64,000 nucleotides of DNA from an uncultured Solirubrobacterales bacterium (GTDB lineage Bacteria; Actinomycetota; Thermoleophilia; Solirubrobacterales; 70-9). Below the pieces are notes generated by a model. The model saw only the letters and a program-made list of their open reading frames with translations, was not told the origin of the DNA and did not search any database. Shown one piece after another: positions 3,057-32,323 of the stretch. The position numbers were made by a program, and so were the translations under genes. The DNA lies in contig CAWHXR010000001.1 of assembly GCA_963833375.1 (NCBI GenBank), positions 408,429 to 472,428 on the forward strand. The letters run 5' to 3'. The first letter of the stretch is position 1. Each line of letters begins with the position of its first letter.

Positions 3057-4421
3057 CTAGACGTAGCCCCGCGTGCGGCTGGCCTCGACCACCCGCTCGA
3101 TCCCCACCAGATAAGCGGCCTCGCGGAGCGAGATGCGCTCCTCCTTCGAGCGAGCCGAGACGTCGCGGTACGCCCGGCGCATGATCCCGCCGAGCTTGTC
3201 GTTGACCTCGCGCTCGGACCAGCGGAAGTGCTGGAGGTTCTGCACCCACTCGAAGTAGGAGCAGACGACCCCACCCGCGTTCGCCATCACGTCGGGGATC
3301 ATGTGGACCCCCTTGTCATGCAGGATCTGGTCGGCGGCGGGCGTGGTGGGGCTGTTGGCGCCCTCGATGATCAGCTTGGTGTTGATCCGATCGGCGTTGC
3401 CCTCGTGGATCATGCCGCCGAGCGCCGCGGGGATCAGGACGTCGCATTCGATCGCGAGCAGGTCGTCTGGGCTGATCACCTCGGCGCCGGGAAACTCGGT
3501 GAGCTTGCCTCCCTCGCGTATGTGGGCCGCCAGGTCGTCGGCGTCGATGCCCTCGTCGCTGCGGATCGCGCCGGTGGCGTCGGACGTGCCGACCATCTTG
3601 GCGCCGAGCTGCTGGAGGATGCGGGCGGCCCAGGAGCCGACGTTGCCGTATCCCTGGACCACGAAGGTGCTTTCCGCGGGGGTGAGGCCGATCTGCGGGG
3701 CCGCCTCCCGGAACATGTAGATGCAGCCGCGGCCGGTGGCCTGCTCTCGACCGTATGAGCCCTCCAGCGCGATCGGCTTGCCGGTGCAGATCGCGGGCGT
3801 GTGGCCGTGGAGCTTGCCGTACTCGTCCATCATCCAGGCCATCACCTGGGCGTCCGTGTTGACGTCGGGGGCCGGGATGTCGCGGGTCGGGCCGAGGATC
3901 TTCTGGATCTTGTCCATGAACGAGCGCGTGATGGTCTGCAGCTCGGAGCGGTCCAGCTTCTCCGCCGGGCAGTTGACGCCGCCCTTGGCCCCGCCGAAGG
4001 GGATGTTCGCCACAGCGGTCTTCCAGGTCATCAGCGAGGCGAGGGCGCGCACCTCGTCGACGTCGACCTCGGGGTGGTACCGGATGCCCCCCTTGTAGGG
4101 GCCGCGGGCGCCGTTGTGCTGGATCCGATAGCCGGAGAAGGTGTGGACCTTCCCGTCCGAGAGCTTGACCGGGATCTGGACGGTGACCTCGCGGTACGGG
4201 GTCCAGAAGACCGTGCGGATGTCGTCGGGGAGCTCGAGGCGCTCCACCGCCCGGTCGAAGTAGAAGCGGACGATGTCGAGGTTGGAGACCTCGGCGCGCT
4301 GTGCGGGCTTGGACTCGCCGGCCGCTGCAACGCGCTCCCTTTCCTGGTCGACAGCGGTAGGCGATTTGTCCGTCGCCTTCCGTTCCCCGACTGATTCCGG
4401 TTGCTTGGCCCTCGTCGCCAC
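3057..4421 (-). CDS. gdh: NAD(P)-specific glutamate dehydrogenase (Glu/Leu/Phe/Val dehydrogenase family)
   Basis: Motifs GGIRYHP and the catalytic-Lys region TWKTAVANIPFGGAKGGV, plus Rossmann segment VVQGYGNVGS. The ORF extends to 4493, but GTG at 4421 is preceded by GGAGGG. Confidence 0.9.
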   Translation of the reverse strand: MATRAKQPESVGERKATDKSPTAVDQERERVAAAGESKPAQRAEVSNLDIVRFYFDRAVERLELPDDIRTVFWTPYREVTVQIPVKLSDGKVHTFSGYRIQHNGARGPYKGGIRYHPEVDVDEVRALASLMTWKTAVANIPFGGAKGGVNCPAEKLDRSELQTITRSFMDKIQKILGPTRDIPAPDVNTDAQVMAWMMDEYGKLHGHTPAICTGKPIALEGSYGREQATGRGCIYMFREAAPQIGLTPAESTFVVQGYGNVGSWAARILQQLGAKMVGTSDATGAIRSDEGIDADDLAAHIREGGKLTEFPGAEVISPDDLLAIECDVLIPAALGGMIHEGNADRINTKLIIEGANSPTTPAADQILHDKGVHMIPDVMANAGGVVCSYFEWVQNLQHFRWSEREVNDKLGGIMRRAYRDVSARSKEERISLREAAYLVGIERVVEASRTRGYV

Positions 4422-20403: not shown

Positions 20404-23128
<2,725 letters not shown>

Positions 23129-23138
23129 CGGGTTCTCG

Positions 23139-23783
23139 TCAGGAGAGGCGCTCGCGTGCTCTGCCCAGGTCGCCGACCAGCAGGGCCATCGCGTCGTCCC
23201 GGTCCGAGGGGTCAGCCCGGAGGATGGCGGAAGGATGAAGCGTCGGCATCGCGGTCCGGCCCAGCCGCGACTCCAGGAACTCGCCGTGGTCCTTCATCAC
23301 GCGGGCCTTCGAGCCGATCACGGCCTTCACAGCCGTCGCGCCGAGGCAGACCATCACCTCCGGATCGACGAGGGCGAGCTCGGCCTCGAGCCAGGGCGCG
23401 CATGCCGTGATCTCCTCTGCGCGCGGGGCCTGGTGGATGCGCCGCTTGCCCTTCGGCTTCCACTTGAAGTGCTTGACGACGTTGGTGACGTAGGCGTCGC
23501 CTCGCTCGATGCCGGCCTCCTCCAGCGCCTTGTCCAGGATCCGCCCGGCGGGCCCGACGAACGGATGGCCCTCGATGTCCTCGCGGTCGCCGGGCTGCTC
23601 GCCGATCAGCATCAGCCTGGCCCGCTTGAGGCCCTCCCCGAAGACGGTCTGGGTCCCGGTCTTCCAGAGCGGGCAGGCCCGGCAGCCCGCGGCGGCCTCG
23701 CGAAGGGACTCGAGTGTGGGGCTCTCGGGGATCAGCGCCTCGGCGCCGCTGGTCTCTCCGTCGGTGAGGGGAAGCTGGCTCAC
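23139..23783 (-). CDS. udgX: family-4-like uracil-DNA glycosylase of the UdgX type
   Basis: CRACPLW Fe-S region, motif A LIGEQPGDRED, FVGPAG, and the UdgX-specific insertion VKHFKWKPKGKRRIHQAP containing the KRRIH loop. C-terminal HPS motif. Confidence 0.85.
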   Translation of the reverse strand: MSQLPLTDGETSGAEALIPESPTLESLREAAAGCRACPLWKTGTQTVFGEGLKRARLMLIGEQPGDREDIEGHPFVGPAGRILDKALEEAGIERGDAYVTNVVKHFKWKPKGKRRIHQAPRAEEITACAPWLEAELALVDPEVMVCLGATAVKAVIGSKARVMKDHGEFLESRLGRTAMPTLHPSAILRADPSDRDDAMALLVGDLGRARERLS

Positions 23784-23834
23784 GGGATCGTCCTACCCGT
23801 CGTTCAATCGACGCATTCGCAACCGAAGGATATG

Positions 23835-23848
23835 CGAACATCTGTTCG
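23835..23848. promoter_or_regulatory. LexA operator (SOS box, GAAC-N4-GTTC type)
   Basis: CGAACATCTGTTCG is a perfect palindrome. With its flanks, GCGAACatctGTTCGA matches TCGAAC-N4-GTTCGA at 11 of 12 positions. It lies in the 65-nt divergent region between udgX and the radical SAM gene and ends 1 nt before that gene's ATG. Confidence 0.7.
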
Positions 23849-25912
23849 ATGCGCTGGGACGCACAGAGGGTGGAGAGAGAGAAGGGAAGGAGCCTGCCCG
23901 GCCTGTCGGTCGAGCGGGTCCGCACCTTCGACGCGCCGGAGGCCCTCGGGATCAACTTCCACGAGGTCAGGGCCAAGTCGGCGCTCAACAAGGTTCCCGG
24001 CAACTACCTCCCGTTCAAGTGGACGGTCAACGCTTTCAGAGGGTGTGCCCATGCATGCACCTACTGCCTGGGGGGCGAGACCCCGATCATGCTCGCGGAC
24101 GGACGCGTCAGGCCCATCTCCGATCTGAAGGTGGGAGACCGCATATATGGCACTACGAAGGGCCCGACCTACCGCCACTACGCCATCACCGAGGTGCTTG
24201 CCCACTGGGAGACGTTCACGGAGGCTTACCGCCTCACGCTCGAGGACGGGACTGAGCTGATCGCCAGTGACGATCACCGCTTCCTGAGCCGGCGGGGGAA
24301 TTGGAAGCACGTCATCGGAGCCCAGTGTGGCCCGCTGCAGCGCCCATATCTGACGCTCAACGACGAGCTGATGGGCGTCGGGCAGTTCGCCCATGGTCCG
24401 GATACCGATTCCCCTATGTATCGAAGGGGGTATCTCTGCGGATTGATTCGAGGCGACGGAAATCTCCGCATCTACGAGGACAGGCGGCCCCACCGCACGG
24501 GCCAAAAGCTCCACCGATTCCGGCTCGCGCTCGCCGACTTCGAGGCTTTGCGCAGGGCACAGGAGTACCTCCGCGACTTCGACGTGGAAGCGGGCGAATA
24601 CGCCTTCTCGGCCGCCTCGGGCAACCGACGCGAGATCCGCGCGATCCGAAATCAGACGAGGGCGGGTGTCGAGACGATCCGTGAGGCGATCGCATGGCCG
24701 TGCGGATATTCGGAGCTATGGGCCAAGGGGTTCCTCGCCGGGATCTTCGACGCAGAGGGCTGTTACGCGCAGGGGGTATTCCGAATCGCCAACTGCGACC
24801 AGCAGATCATCGACTGGACCGCGTGGTCCCTCCGCCTGCTCGATTTCGATCATGCAATCGAGCGGAGCGGTCGACCCAACGGGATGACAAACGTCCGAAT
24901 CCGGGGCGGTCTCCGAGAGGTGCTGCGCTTCTTCCACCTCACCGAGCCTGCGATCACGCGGAAGCGATCGATCGCGGGCACCGCATTGAAGTCCGACTCG
25001 AAGCTCCGTGTTGCCTCGATCGAGCCGCTCGGTGAGCGCCAGCTCTTCGACATCACGACCGGAAGCGGTGACTTCATCGCCAACGGTGTGGTCAGCCACA
25101 ACTGCTTCGCCCGCAACACCCACACCTACCTCGACCTCGACGCCGGCCGCGATTTCGAGCGCGAGATCGTCGTCAAGGTCAACGTGCCCGAGCTGCTCCG
25201 GGCGGAGCTGGGCAGGCCGAGCTGGAAGCGCGAGCTGGTCGCCTTCGGGACGAACACCGATCCGTACCAGTGGGCCGAGGGCCGCTACGAGCTCATGCCG
25301 CCGATGCTCGAGGCGCTCCGGGATGCGGAGACGCCGGTCTCCGTCCTGACCAAGTCGTCGCTCGTCCTCCGCGATCTCGATCTCTTTCTGGAGCTGGCGC
25401 AGGTCGCCGACGTCAGCGCCAACTTCTCGGTGCCGACCCTGGACGAGAAGGTCTGGCGCGAGACCGAGCCGCACACCCCGCACCCGCGCAAGCGGCTGGA
25501 GGCGGTGGCGGCCTTCAACGAGGCGGGGATCCCGTCCGGGGTGCTGGTGGCCCCCCTGATGCCCGGGATCAACGACGCCCCGGAGCTGGTCGAGGAGATC
25601 GTCTCGATCGCCGAGGGTGCGGGGGCGACCTTCGTCAACGGCATCGCGCTCCACCTGAGGCCCGGGGTGAAGGAGGTCTTCATGTCCTGGCTCTCGGCCG
25701 CGCGGCCGGACCTGGTGCCGCGCTACGAGGAGCTCTACCAGGATCGCGCCTACGCCCCCAACGCGGAGCGCAAGCGGATCGGGAGCCTGGTCCGGGCACC
25801 GAACCGCTCGCGGGATCCGCGCTACAGCCGCCGCGACGAGCTCGAGAGGCGGCGGCGCCGGCGCGCGAGCGAGGCCCGGGAGCCCGGGGCCGCGCAGACG
25901 AGGCTCTTCTAG
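23849..25912 (+). CDS. Rv2578c/SplB-like radical SAM protein (DNA repair photolyase-like), intein-containing precursor
   Basis: N-extein MRWDAQ...LPFKWTVNAFRGCAHACTY, a 346-aa intein, then C-extein CFARNTHTYLDLD... Joining the exteins restores CAHACTYC (CX3CX2C). The extein is about 340 aa. Confidence 0.85.
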   Translation: MRWDAQRVEREKGRSLPGLSVERVRTFDAPEALGINFHEVRAKSALNKVPGNYLPFKWTVNAFRGCAHACTYCLGGETPIMLADGRVRPISDLKVGDRIYGTTKGPTYRHYAITEVLAHWETFTEAYRLTLEDGTELIASDDHRFLSRRGNWKHVIGAQCGPLQRPYLTLNDELMGVGQFAHGPDTDSPMYRRGYLCGLIRGDGNLRIYEDRRPHRTGQKLHRFRLALADFEALRRAQEYLRDFDVEAGEYAFSAASGNRREIRAIRNQTRAGVETIREAIAWPCGYSELWAKGFLAGIFDAEGCYAQGVFRIANCDQQIIDWTAWSLRLLDFDHAIERSGRPNGMTNVRIRGGLREVLRFFHLTEPAITRKRSIAGTALKSDSKLRVASIEPLGERQLFDITTGSGDFIANGVVSHNCFARNTHTYLDLDAGRDFEREIVVKVNVPELLRAELGRPSWKRELVAFGTNTDPYQWAEGRYELMPPMLEALRDAETPVSVLTKSSLVLRDLDLFLELAQVADVSANFSVPTLDEKVWRETEPHTPHPRKRLEAVAAFNEAGIPSGVLVAPLMPGINDAPELVEEIVSIAEGAGATFVNGIALHLRPGVKEVFMSWLSAARPDLVPRYEELYQDRAYAPNAERKRIGSLVRAPNRSRDPRYSRRDELERRRRRRASEAREPGAAQTRLF
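24065..25102 (+). mobile_element. intein with LAGLIDADG homing-endonuclease domain
   Basis: Begins CLGGETPIMLADG (block A). Block B is ASDDHRF. Two dodecapeptide motifs, YLCGLIRGDGN and FLAGIFDAEGC. Block F/G is FDITTGSGDFIANGVVSHN, followed by a +1 Cys. Confidence 0.85.
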
Positions 25913-25983
25913 CCGGTCGCCTGACGATTCGGTGGCCGCGTGCCGGGTAACCGGCCGGTGAAGAGGATCGAAAGGAGGTTGCG

Positions 25984-26325
25984 ATGCCACCGAGAGGCGT
26001 GAGGAAGGGCACGAAGTGGGCCCGGATGTACGAGCACGTCAAGGAGAGCGAGAGGCGCGAGGGCCGCCCGAAGAGCAAGGCGGAGGAGATCGCGGCCCGC
26101 ACCGTGAACAAGGAGCGGGCCAGGGCGGGCGAGTCCGACGAGGCCTCGAGCTCCTCGCTGCGGGACATCTCGTCGTTCCGTCGCGGCGGACTGCGCTCCG
26201 GCCGCGGCGCGGGCGGGCGAACGTACGCGCAGCTCTACGAGGAGGCCAAGGACCTTGGCATCAAGGGCCGCTCGAAGATGAACAAGCGCCAGCTCGTCGG
26301 AGCCGTGGAGGGGAGGAAGCGCTGA
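25984..26325 (+). CDS. small basic protein with C-terminal Rho_N/SAP-like helix-hairpin domain
   Basis: AAGGAGG lies 5 nt before the ATG. The C-terminus TYAQLYEEAKDLGIKGRSKMNKRQLVGAV resembles the Rho termination factor N-terminal (SAP-like) motif. Confidence 0.65.
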   Translation: MPPRGVRKGTKWARMYEHVKESERREGRPKSKAEEIAARTVNKERARAGESDEASSSSLRDISSFRRGGLRSGRGAGGRTYAQLYEEAKDLGIKGRSKMNKRQLVGAVEGRKR

Positions 26326-26414
26326 TGGCCACCCAGAGCCAGCGGCGCGCCGCGAGGCGAACGCGGTACGCAAGGGCGATCCCCCGGCGCGGCGGCACGG
26401 CCGACTAGCGGGGG

Positions 26415-27089
26415 TCAGCCCTCGATGCCGGTGGCGTCGTGGGGCGCCCCGACAGGCTTGGACTGCGAAGAGCCCCGCTGGCGGAGGAAGGCGGTGATGG
26501 CCACGAACGAGCCGACCGCGAGGAACTCCGACTGCCAGTTCTGCAGCGTCGCCTCCCAGAAGTCCGCCGATCCGACATAGCCGAGCCAGGACACCACCTT
26601 CTCGTGGTGGTCGACCTGCACCGCGTTGTACTTCGTCCAGCCTGTGACCGATTGAGCGAACCAGGAGCCGAAGAAGATGATCGACATCACGATCAGCAAT
26701 GAGTTGGAGTAGACGAAGGTCTTGATGCCGCGAGGTTTCGCCCAGTCGGGCGAGTCCTCGTGGGCGTGCTCCCCCACCTTCTGCTCCTCGTCCGACTCGA
26801 GCCCCTCCTTGCCGGGCTCCTTCGACTCCGGGGATCCGCGCTCGATCAACCAGATCGTGGCGAGCATGAAGAGCATGAACTGCAGGTACTCCGACTGCCA
26901 GTTCTCCATCACCGCATTGCCGAAGTCCGAGGAGACGATGTAACGCGAGAAGGTCATGGTGGTCCCGTGATGGGCCATCGCATCCTCGTTGTGGAGGATG
27001 TGTCCGGCGATCGCCTGGCCGACCAGCGCCGCGAGGAAGATCACCAGGAAGAAGAGGGAGAGGGAGTGATCGCGGATGAAGCGGCGCAT
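26415..27089 (-). CDS. DUF6766-like membrane protein with internal duplication
   Basis: Starts at MRRFIRDHSLSLFFLVIFLAALVGQ (ATG 27089) inside the longer ORF. Two repeats each end NWQSE(Y/F)L...RGS(P/S)(E/Q)SK. Family assignment is from memory of the pattern. Confidence 0.6.
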   Translation of the reverse strand: MRRFIRDHSLSLFFLVIFLAALVGQAIAGHILHNEDAMAHHGTTMTFSRYIVSSDFGNAVMENWQSEYLQFMLFMLATIWLIERGSPESKEPGKEGLESDEEQKVGEHAHEDSPDWAKPRGIKTFVYSNSLLIVMSIIFFGSWFAQSVTGWTKYNAVQVDHHEKVVSWLGYVGSADFWEATLQNWQSEFLAVGSFVAITAFLRQRGSSQSKPVGAPHDATGIEG

Positions 27090-31701: not shown

Positions 31702-31774
31702 GCCCCCGTAGCTCAACTGGTCTAGACGGCGAGACTTTTAACTCGTAGTCTGGGTTCGAGTCCCGGAGGGGGCA
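31702..31774 (+). tRNA. tRNA-Lys(UUU)-like element, structurally aberrant (probable pseudo-tRNA)
   Basis: The T arm is good (CTGGG TTCGAGT CCCGG) and 6 of 7 acceptor pairs form. The D stem cannot form 4 bp. The best anticodon helix, GCGAG/CTCGT, leaves an 8-nt loop ACTTTTAA and a 3-nt variable region. Confidence 0.5.
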
Positions 31775-31914
31775 CTTCTCCGACTTCTCGGCTTCAGGCG
31801 TCAGCGGCGAACATAGGTTCGCTGGGCAGGACCCGGGCGAATCGAGGATCCGAACTGCAGGCGCCAATCCCACTCGTCAAGAAGAGGGGTCGCCCGCCTG
31901 ATCCGAGGACGAAC

Positions 31915-32323
31915 GTGTCCGGTGGAGGAGCGGCGCTGCAGGCGGCATGGGCTGACCGAGTTCGCTCAGTACAGCCGCGCCCAAGCCGCGGCTACCGCTG
32001 GTCGTGCAAGCGGTGCGTCGGTGAGGCCGTACCGCCGTCGGCAGCAGAAGCTGAAGCGCATGCTCGTCGAAGAGGCCGGTGGTCTTGCTGCGGTGTGTGG
32101 CTATGACCGCTGCATCAGTCAACCTGCGGTTTCCACCACGTCGATCCAGCCAGAAGTCATTCGCCATGATCGATGGCGATGGGTAAGTCGATCGCCAGCT
32201 TTCGTGAAGAGGCCAGAGAAGTGCGTCCTCGTCTGCGCCAATTGCCACGGCGAGATCGAGGCGGGACTGATTCAGAGCCCGCCCGCGGGAACCAAGTTCA
32301 GTGGCGGCCTGAAGGCCGCCTAG
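31915..32323 (+). pseudogene. small HNH endonuclease gene, multiply frameshifted with an in-frame stop
   Basis: Family-like segments are scattered over two frames: RRCRRHGLTEF (frame of ORF 31922), GYRWSCKRCVGEAV (frame of ORF 31915), QQKLKRMLVEEAGGLAAVCGYDRC, FHHVDPA...TGA(32167)...GKSIASFREEAR, then KCVLVCANCHGEIEAGL. GC content is visibly lower than in the flanks. Confidence 0.65.

Follow-up and report, generated by a model that had tools for sequence, protein, structure and literature searches.

A perfect palindrome, CGAACATCTGTTCG, directly precedes an Rv2578c-family radical SAM gene in a 64-kb stretch of DNA from an uncultured Solirubrobacterales bacterium (hereafter the window, meaning the whole stretch analyzed). 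Judged by comparison with relatives, it is a genuine LexA-type (SOS) operator, and its conservation at the start of this gene is very strong. We consider it very likely that LexA binds here to control the radical SAM gene, and the palindrome is in all probability an operator lying over the gene's own promoter. This reading, put forward in a preliminary description of the same DNA, is now supported by 1) the position of the box in 79/79 related loci, 2) the presence of the motif upstream of recA in 12 related loci, and 3) ChIP-seq evidence from Mycobacterium tuberculosis. The wider proposal made at the same time, an SOS-controlled module joining udgX to the radical SAM gene, is not supported as it was stated, since the box follows the radical SAM gene through every change of neighbors.

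A LexA-type box adjoins the radical SAM start codon

The box matches the 14-mer CGAAC-N4-GTTCG exactly. The 16-mer that encloses it, GCGAACATCTGTTCGA (23834-23849), agrees at 11/12 positions with the actinobacterial consensus TCGAAC-N4-GTTCGA, and a direct reading of the sequence thus bears out the palindrome and the degree of match first described. The last A of this 16-mer is the first base of the radical SAM ATG at 23849, and the box directly adjoins the ATG. The layout of the divergent region also proved right: it spans 65 nt (23784-23848) between udgX and the radical SAM gene, and the udgX GTG at 23783 lies 51 nt from the box, for which about 50 nt had been given. The features of the locus are listed in Table 1.

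Table 1. Features discussed in the text, with window coordinates
Feature	Position	Strand	Remarks and basis
197-aa helical protein	22535-23128	-	10 nt downstream of udgX
udgX (uracil-DNA binding/crosslinking family), 214 aa	23139-23783	-	Divergent from the radical SAM gene; TIGR03914, 6AIL alignment
Candidate extended -10 element, TG-C-GAACAT	23833-23841	+	Over the left half of the operator; one-sided conservation
LexA-type SOS box (Cheo box), CGAACATCTGTTCG	23835-23848	none	Sequence read, conservation, recA recurrence in relatives
Rv2578c-family radical SAM gene (SplB/COG1533-like "DNA repair photolyase"), 687-aa precursor	23849-25912	+	NCBIfam profiles, homologues
Intein, 346 aa (Cys1 ... His-Asn, +1 Cys)	24065-25102	+	Splice junctions and profiles
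Basic protein with Rho_N-like C-terminal motif, 113 aa	25984-26325	+	71 nt after the radical SAM stop
Second perfect box, CGAACATAGGTTCG	31808-31821		Non-coding, between tRNA-like and HNH-like genes

Boxes of this quality are rare by chance. In the 64-kb window, CGAAC-N4-GTTCG was found twice against 0.08 expected from dinucleotide-preserving shuffles, and the shorter GAAC-N4-GTTC core was also found twice, against 0.59 expected. Looser sites are in excess as well, with 11 16-mers within two mismatches of TCGAAC-N4-GTTCGA where 3.3 were expected. The nine non-perfect sites among them (e.g., at 3085, 18148, 38549, and 45015) are without the GAAC/GTTC cores, and our guess is that codon composition produces this excess.

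The box is conserved at the start of the radical SAM gene

Scanning one genome per species gave 80 related loci, in which identity to the radical SAM protein runs from 91% down to 60%. All 80 genomic relatives, and the best protein matches, are metagenome-assembled genomes (MAGs) of Solirubrobacterales or other Thermoleophilia. Counts over 80 sequences below refer to the 79 loci in which the 5' end of the gene is present plus the window, and counts over 81 to all 80 loci plus the window.

GCGAAC-N4-GTTCG is present at the start of the radical SAM gene, no more than 36 nt upstream, in 79/79 Thermoleophilia loci whose sequence reaches the 5' end of the gene; the second-best site within 300 nt upstream has three to five mismatches. 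The GAAC-N4-GTTC core is largely confined to this position, since 78 of its 81 copies in 667 kb of related loci lie at a radical SAM start. Across the 80 sequences, the half-sites do not vary and the flanks have diverged. The spacer is ATAC in 26 sequences, ATAT in 22, ATGT in 14, GTAT in 12, and something else in 6 (ATCT is among the spacers seen). The resulting consensus, CGAAC-ATAT/ATAC-GTTCG, is that of the Gram-positive Cheo box, CGAACATATGTTCG. Invariant half-sites around a variable spacer argue for a protein operator and not for an RNA stem.

The same core lies upstream of recA in relatives

Neither lexA nor recA is encoded in the 64-kb window, and no lexA was found in all the related loci searched with Escherichia coli LexA as the query. 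The expectation raised in the preliminary description, that the motif should recur upstream of recA, was therefore checked in relatives. One of the three cores located away from the radical SAM gene, GCGAACAGCTGTTCC in locus L075 (104-118), sits 50 nt upstream of the ATG of recA, which is the only recA gene in the 80 loci. In the closest metagenomic relatives of this RecA, retrieved with RecA as the query (L081-L083), CGAACAnnnGTTCC is kept 52-54 nt upstream of recA, and two further metagenomic recA loci have perfect boxes at 59 nt. A separate set of recA loci, fetched through six RecA proteins of which three are labelled Solirubrobacteraceae (L161-L168), has CGAACAnnnGTTC(C/T)GTCC upstream of the gene in 8/8 cases, at 53-63 nt in seven and at 149 nt in L166. 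The box thus precedes recA in 12 related loci (L075, L081-L083, and L161-L168), with flanks unlike those of the radical SAM boxes.

The expectation stands for these 12 loci and not as a general rule: a site with at most one mismatch lies within 300 nt of recA in only 22/74 metagenomic recA relatives (mostly taxonomically unlabelled, down to 60% identity), so that control of recA through this motif is not shown to be universal. In Solirubrobacteraceae-like genomes, the recA SOS box is conserved 50-63 nt upstream of the ATG, with the exception of L166.

Operator, predicted promoter, and start codon coincide

By the distance from the 14-mer box to the start codon, the 80 sequences form two groups. 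In the larger one (63/80), box and start codon abut: the gap is -1 nt in 23 sequences, where a GTG start overlaps the last G of the box, 0 nt in 10 sequences including the window, +1 nt in 27, and +2 or +3 nt in 3. The remaining 17 sequences have a leader, with a gap of 28-36 nt. A Shine-Dalgarno-like sequence was found in only 1/63 abutting sequences and was missing from the other 62, whereas most members of the leader group (11/17) have such a match, GGAG, and the group shares a conserved TGCAAGACTGGAGAG-type Shine-Dalgarno sequence between box and start. Loci with a leader are L002, L004-L011, L013, L018, L021-L025, and L080. This looks like one gene that has switched between leaderless and Shine-Dalgarno-led translation.

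The box itself is constrained in a way that a symmetric dimer does not explain. TG occurs two bases before GAAC in 79/80 sequences, without a conserved mirror-image counterpart after GTTCG; likewise, all 80 sequences have T as the second spacer base, but only 60/80 have A at the mirror position. In relatives, the recA boxes have neither the left TG nor the spacer T. An extended -10 element (TG-n-GAACAT) would explain these one-sided constraints, which suggests that such an element is built into the operator. In the window, its last T (23841) precedes the A of the start codon by 7 nt, and the distance is 6, 7, or 8 nt across sequences, the geometry expected for transcription beginning at the start codon. 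GAACAT is a poor -10 hexamer, in which only A2 and T6 fit TANNNT. Scans of 23600-24050 and 22300-26500 found no E. coli-type promoters or terminators, a result that says little since the genome is that of a 69% GC actinobacterium. From the abutting starts and the scarcity of Shine-Dalgarno-like sequences we infer that the radical SAM mRNA is probably leaderless, and the leaderless or very-short-leader message proposed earlier holds at that strength.

The radical SAM gene is split by an intein in its Fe-S motif

The gene to the right of the box had been described as an intein-bearing radical SAM gene, and NCBIfam alignments together with intein motifs agree with this. The precursor aligns full length, from residue 1, with NF038136 (intein-containing Rv2578c family; 676.3 bits, cutoff 700) and with NF038135 (401 bits, cutoff 430), both scores being slightly under the cutoff, and it scores 236 bits against NF033668, the PA0069 sister family. 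The ATG at 23849 is the true start: the alignment to the family model begins at residue 1, and the N-terminal MRWD is common to all the homologues aligned. With the intein taken out, the protein is 80-92% identical to hundreds of intein-free homologues.

The ends of the intein read CLGGE...VVSHN/C. It separates Y72 from the third Cys of the CxxxCxxC cluster motif (GCAHACTY/intein/CFAR), and this motif is restored once the intein is removed in silico. The +1 Cys of the intein is also the third ligand of the Fe-S cluster. Two LAGLIDADG-type motifs, GLIRGDG and GIFDAEG, are intact as read from the sequence. The intein scores 24.7 against TIGR01445 (cutoff 24.5), and its matches to Pfam Intein_splicing and LAGLIDADG_3 are under their cutoffs. 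Inteins occupy the same site in 10/80 related loci (11/81 with the window), all within L017-L026, and the closest extein homologues (92%) are without one. Alleles at this site are 36-77% identical to that of the window, which suggests spread by repeated homing.

The box travels with the radical SAM gene through changes of neighbors

The leftward gene was rightly identified as udgX. Its product scores 260.5 bits against TIGR03914 (cutoff 190) and aligns with the Mycobacterium smegmatis UdgX structure 6AIL (E = 2e-58), and it conserves motif A (GEQPG), the KRRIH loop with the crosslinking His, and motif B (HPS). Yet udgX faces the box in only 15/81 sequences, all of them in a close subclade (L001-L026 and the window), where the spacing is steady at 50-55 nt. 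Eight close relatives lack udgX, and there the gene for the 197-aa protein is the direct neighbor opposite the box. In L015 and L025, an additional minus-strand gene separates udgX from the box, which remains at the radical SAM start, and no second box accompanies udgX. The 54 distant loci have unrelated genes upstream, often in the same direction as the radical SAM gene (YtoQ-like, SnoaL-like, MiaB, sigma factor), some of them ending only 30-50 nt before the box. On these comparisons, the box travels with the radical SAM gene and not with udgX.

A tandem of YtoQ-like (~154 aa) and SnoaL/NTF2-like (~162 aa) genes, in the same direction as the radical SAM gene, is found 0.5-1 kb upstream in many of L027-L080, with the SnoaL/NTF2-like gene ending 30-50 nt before the box.

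The 197-aa protein is probably encoded in the same operon as udgX. It has 577 detectable homologues, all in Solirubrobacterales, and belongs to no Pfam family; a hidden Markov model of it finds the protein in 22/26 close loci and in no distant locus. A set of His and acidic residues is unvarying (H9, E12, H13, D106, E119, and H175). The AF2 model (pLDDT 78) has bacterioferritin, Dps, and YciF as best Foldseek matches (E ~0.01, TM 0.55-0.6), a weak indication that the protein may be a ferritin/Dps/YciF-like four-helix bundle. A PDB sequence search with its profile returned only designed helical repeats and was set aside as not meaningful.

This protein had been presented as a passenger of udgX. 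Its gene does start 10 nt after udgX, but it persists in eight relatives that lack udgX. The passenger role therefore does not hold; if either of the two is a passenger, it is udgX. By the same comparison, the 197-aa protein is a steadier neighbor of the radical SAM gene than UdgX is. Downstream, the Rho_N-like ORF with its own ribosome-binding site, GAAAGGAGG, is laid out as first described, and it follows the radical SAM gene in only 8/80 loci. With neighbors this variable, the "module" amounts to a lineage-specific neighborhood in which the 197-aa gene is the steadier partner.

LexA control of udgX would be an addition to the main reading

That LexA at the box also represses the divergent udgX-197-aa transcript is plausible, because the operator lies where the upstream promoter region of that transcript should be. 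A more extensive arrangement, in which one operator co-represses udgX and the 197-aa gene leftward and the radical SAM and Rho_N-like genes rightward as a single SOS repair module, would add to the main reading and not replace it; we regard it as a tentative proposal, somewhat less likely to be right than wrong. The operator is centered ~58 nt upstream of the udgX GTG within the 65-nt intergenic region, so that any udgX promoter would either overlap or abut the LexA footprint or else lie beyond it and be blocked. The constant distance of udgX from the box (50-55 nt, n = 15) is in keeping with this, as is the fact that a minus-strand gene begins within ~80 nt of the box in the close-subclade loci with usable upstream sequence, except L014. 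The LexA peak of M. tuberculosis is likewise assigned to both of the divergent genes, Rv2578c and Rv2579 (PMC3381160).

Several observations weigh against joint control. The box tracks the radical SAM gene only, with 54 distant loci having unrelated and often co-directional upstream genes; udgX is absent from eight close relatives and is displaced, without a box, in L015 and L025; and the Rho_N-like gene is a minority neighbor (8/80 loci). The right flank of the box contains no mirror-image promoter element, and no udgX promoter was recognized: an alignment of the 15 upstream regions showed no TANNNT at a consistent place. What is conserved upstream of udgX on the minus strand, in 15 loci and in 23784-23834 of the window, is ATTGAACG followed by GGGTAG 8-12 nt before the GTG. 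A similar block, CGTT(C/G)AA, is found 24-28 nt away from the box in loci that have the 197-aa gene opposite it. We found no published link between UdgX expression and LexA, and none of the comparisons among relatives calls for co-repression.

Discussion

The SOS box at M. tuberculosis Rv2578c/Rv2579 was reportedly described by Davis in 2002. In that organism, Rv2578c/Rv2579 is ChIP-seq peak 20, where an SOS box with one mismatch is bound by LexA and induction is RecA dependent (PMC3381160, Smollett 2012). A radical SAM protein is also part of the core Gram-positive SOS regulon (PMC7739468) and of the LexA regulon of Streptomyces venezuelae (PMC9380542), and PA0069, a photolyase-like radical SAM protein, is one of the 15 SOS genes of the Pseudomonas aeruginosa LexA regulon (Cirz 2006). 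These reports already establish LexA control of this gene family, and our finding is correct but largely ordinary in that the radical SAM gene is already an SOS regulon gene in other bacteria.

The M. tuberculosis locus is alike in its gene family, in the TCGAAC-N4-GTTCGA motif (there with one mismatch), and in having the box between divergent genes. It differs in the divergent partner, which is dhaA (haloalkane dehalogenase) there and udgX with the lineage-specific 197-aa protein here, and the intein is a feature of the present gene, unlike Rv2578c. The Gram-positive Cheo box regulon shares the box consensus and has a radical SAM gene as a recurrent member; the Thermoleophilia lie outside the analyses in PMC7739468, and on our reading its "radical SAM protein" may be taken to be of the Rv2578c family. 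PA0069 belongs to a sister family within the SplB/COG1533-like group and is also SOS induced, but in another phylum and through another LexA motif. The proteobacterial motif is CTG-N10-CAG. We know of no intein in PA0069 and of no UdgX neighbor. M. smegmatis UdgX (MSMEG_0265) resembles the present protein in the GEQPG, KRRIH loop, and HPS motifs; we found no report of LexA control for it, whereas here udgX lies 51 nt from an SOS box.

Other readings of the palindrome fare far less well. It might be the operator of some other dimeric repressor local to the radical SAM gene and merely resemble a LexA box, and the flanks (tATG...) are indeed more conserved than those of a generic SOS box. We judge this improbable, given a core identical to the Gram-positive/actinobacterial LexA consensus, the same core with different flanks before recA in 12 related loci, and an orthologous M. 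tuberculosis gene that is a ChIP-verified LexA target (PMC3381160); nor was any regulator gene found to be consistently linked to the radical SAM gene across the related loci.

Still less probable is a role at the RNA level, with a 5'-terminal hairpin (GCGAAC-NNNN-GUUCG) in the message masking the start codon or stabilizing the transcript. A stem of 5-6 bp could form beside the start codon, and in the 17 leader loci the transcript could begin at the hairpin or close to it, but the stem positions are invariant over 80 sequences, with no compensatory change, and it is the loop that varies, so that the constraint is on sequence and not on pairing. The box would not be transcribed at all in a leaderless message, recA has the same sequence 53-63 nt upstream, and there is no match to an Rfam family. 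The Rfam scan for an RNA element in the intergenic region gave only a sub-threshold sRNA match inside udgX, and the idea of an RNA element was rejected on that result.

A chance palindrome without function is effectively refuted by positional conservation in 79/79 loci over 60-91% protein identity with diverged flanks, where 0.08 sites are expected per window, even if the second perfect CGAAC-N4-GTTCG in the window (31808), which is not conserved in relatives, shows that such sites can arise. That second site was downgraded as an independent LexA site, since the syntenic Rrf2-tRNA-HNH regions of L007 and L013 are without a box, and it illustrates that a perfect box alone is no proof of function.

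The tRNA-Lys(UUU)-like gene beside the second site (31702-31775) scores 30.7 bits in Rfam (gathering score 29), and ARAGORN assigned it no anticodon; compared with L007 and L013, one T is missing from the 3' strand of the anticodon stem, which means that the tRNA is damaged or else that an indel arose in the assembly. The HNH-endonuclease-like gene at ~31880-32323 (+; CxxC ... FHHVDP ... CANCH) can be read only with at least four switches among three frames and is, by this reading, probably a pseudogene. Its homologue is intact at L007:5562-6137+ (71% identity), and the L013 copy also looks disrupted.

Under LexA control, the locus might work as follows. The left half-site and two spacer bases (TG-C-GAACAT) would act as an extended -10 element, and transcription would start at the ATG after the box, or one to two bases from it, so that the mRNA would be leaderless. 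Bound to the box, a LexA dimer would cover both the -10 region and the start site until DNA damage led to RecA-stimulated self-cleavage of LexA, freeing the promoter. Since the intein interrupts the Fe-S motif, the radical SAM precursor should become active only after splicing. The udgX-197-aa operon, so close to the box, may be co-repressed.

UdgX crosslinks itself to uracil in DNA and is in that sense a "suicide" protein; UdgX-DNA adducts have been proposed to provoke RecA-dependent repair. If udgX were wired into the SOS response, these adducts would close a feed-forward loop. It is conceivable, though on balance unlikely, that in this lineage udgX is connected to the SOS response through the radical SAM operator together with a ferritin/Dps-like 197-aa protein, so that damage would induce both uracil tagging and a radical SAM repair enzyme that depends on splicing. 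Such a link, if true, would bear on what UdgX is for.

The LexA/Cheo-box SOS system, with an SplB-like radical SAM member, is extended by these findings to the little-studied and mostly uncultured Thermoleophilia. The locus also appears to combine operator, extended -10 element, and leaderless start in a single compact natural design, and the sister group with a Shine-Dalgarno leader allows a direct comparison. They also reinforce the view that this radical SAM enzyme of unknown chemistry is among the most persistent of bacterial SOS genes, which makes a good case for finding its substrate.
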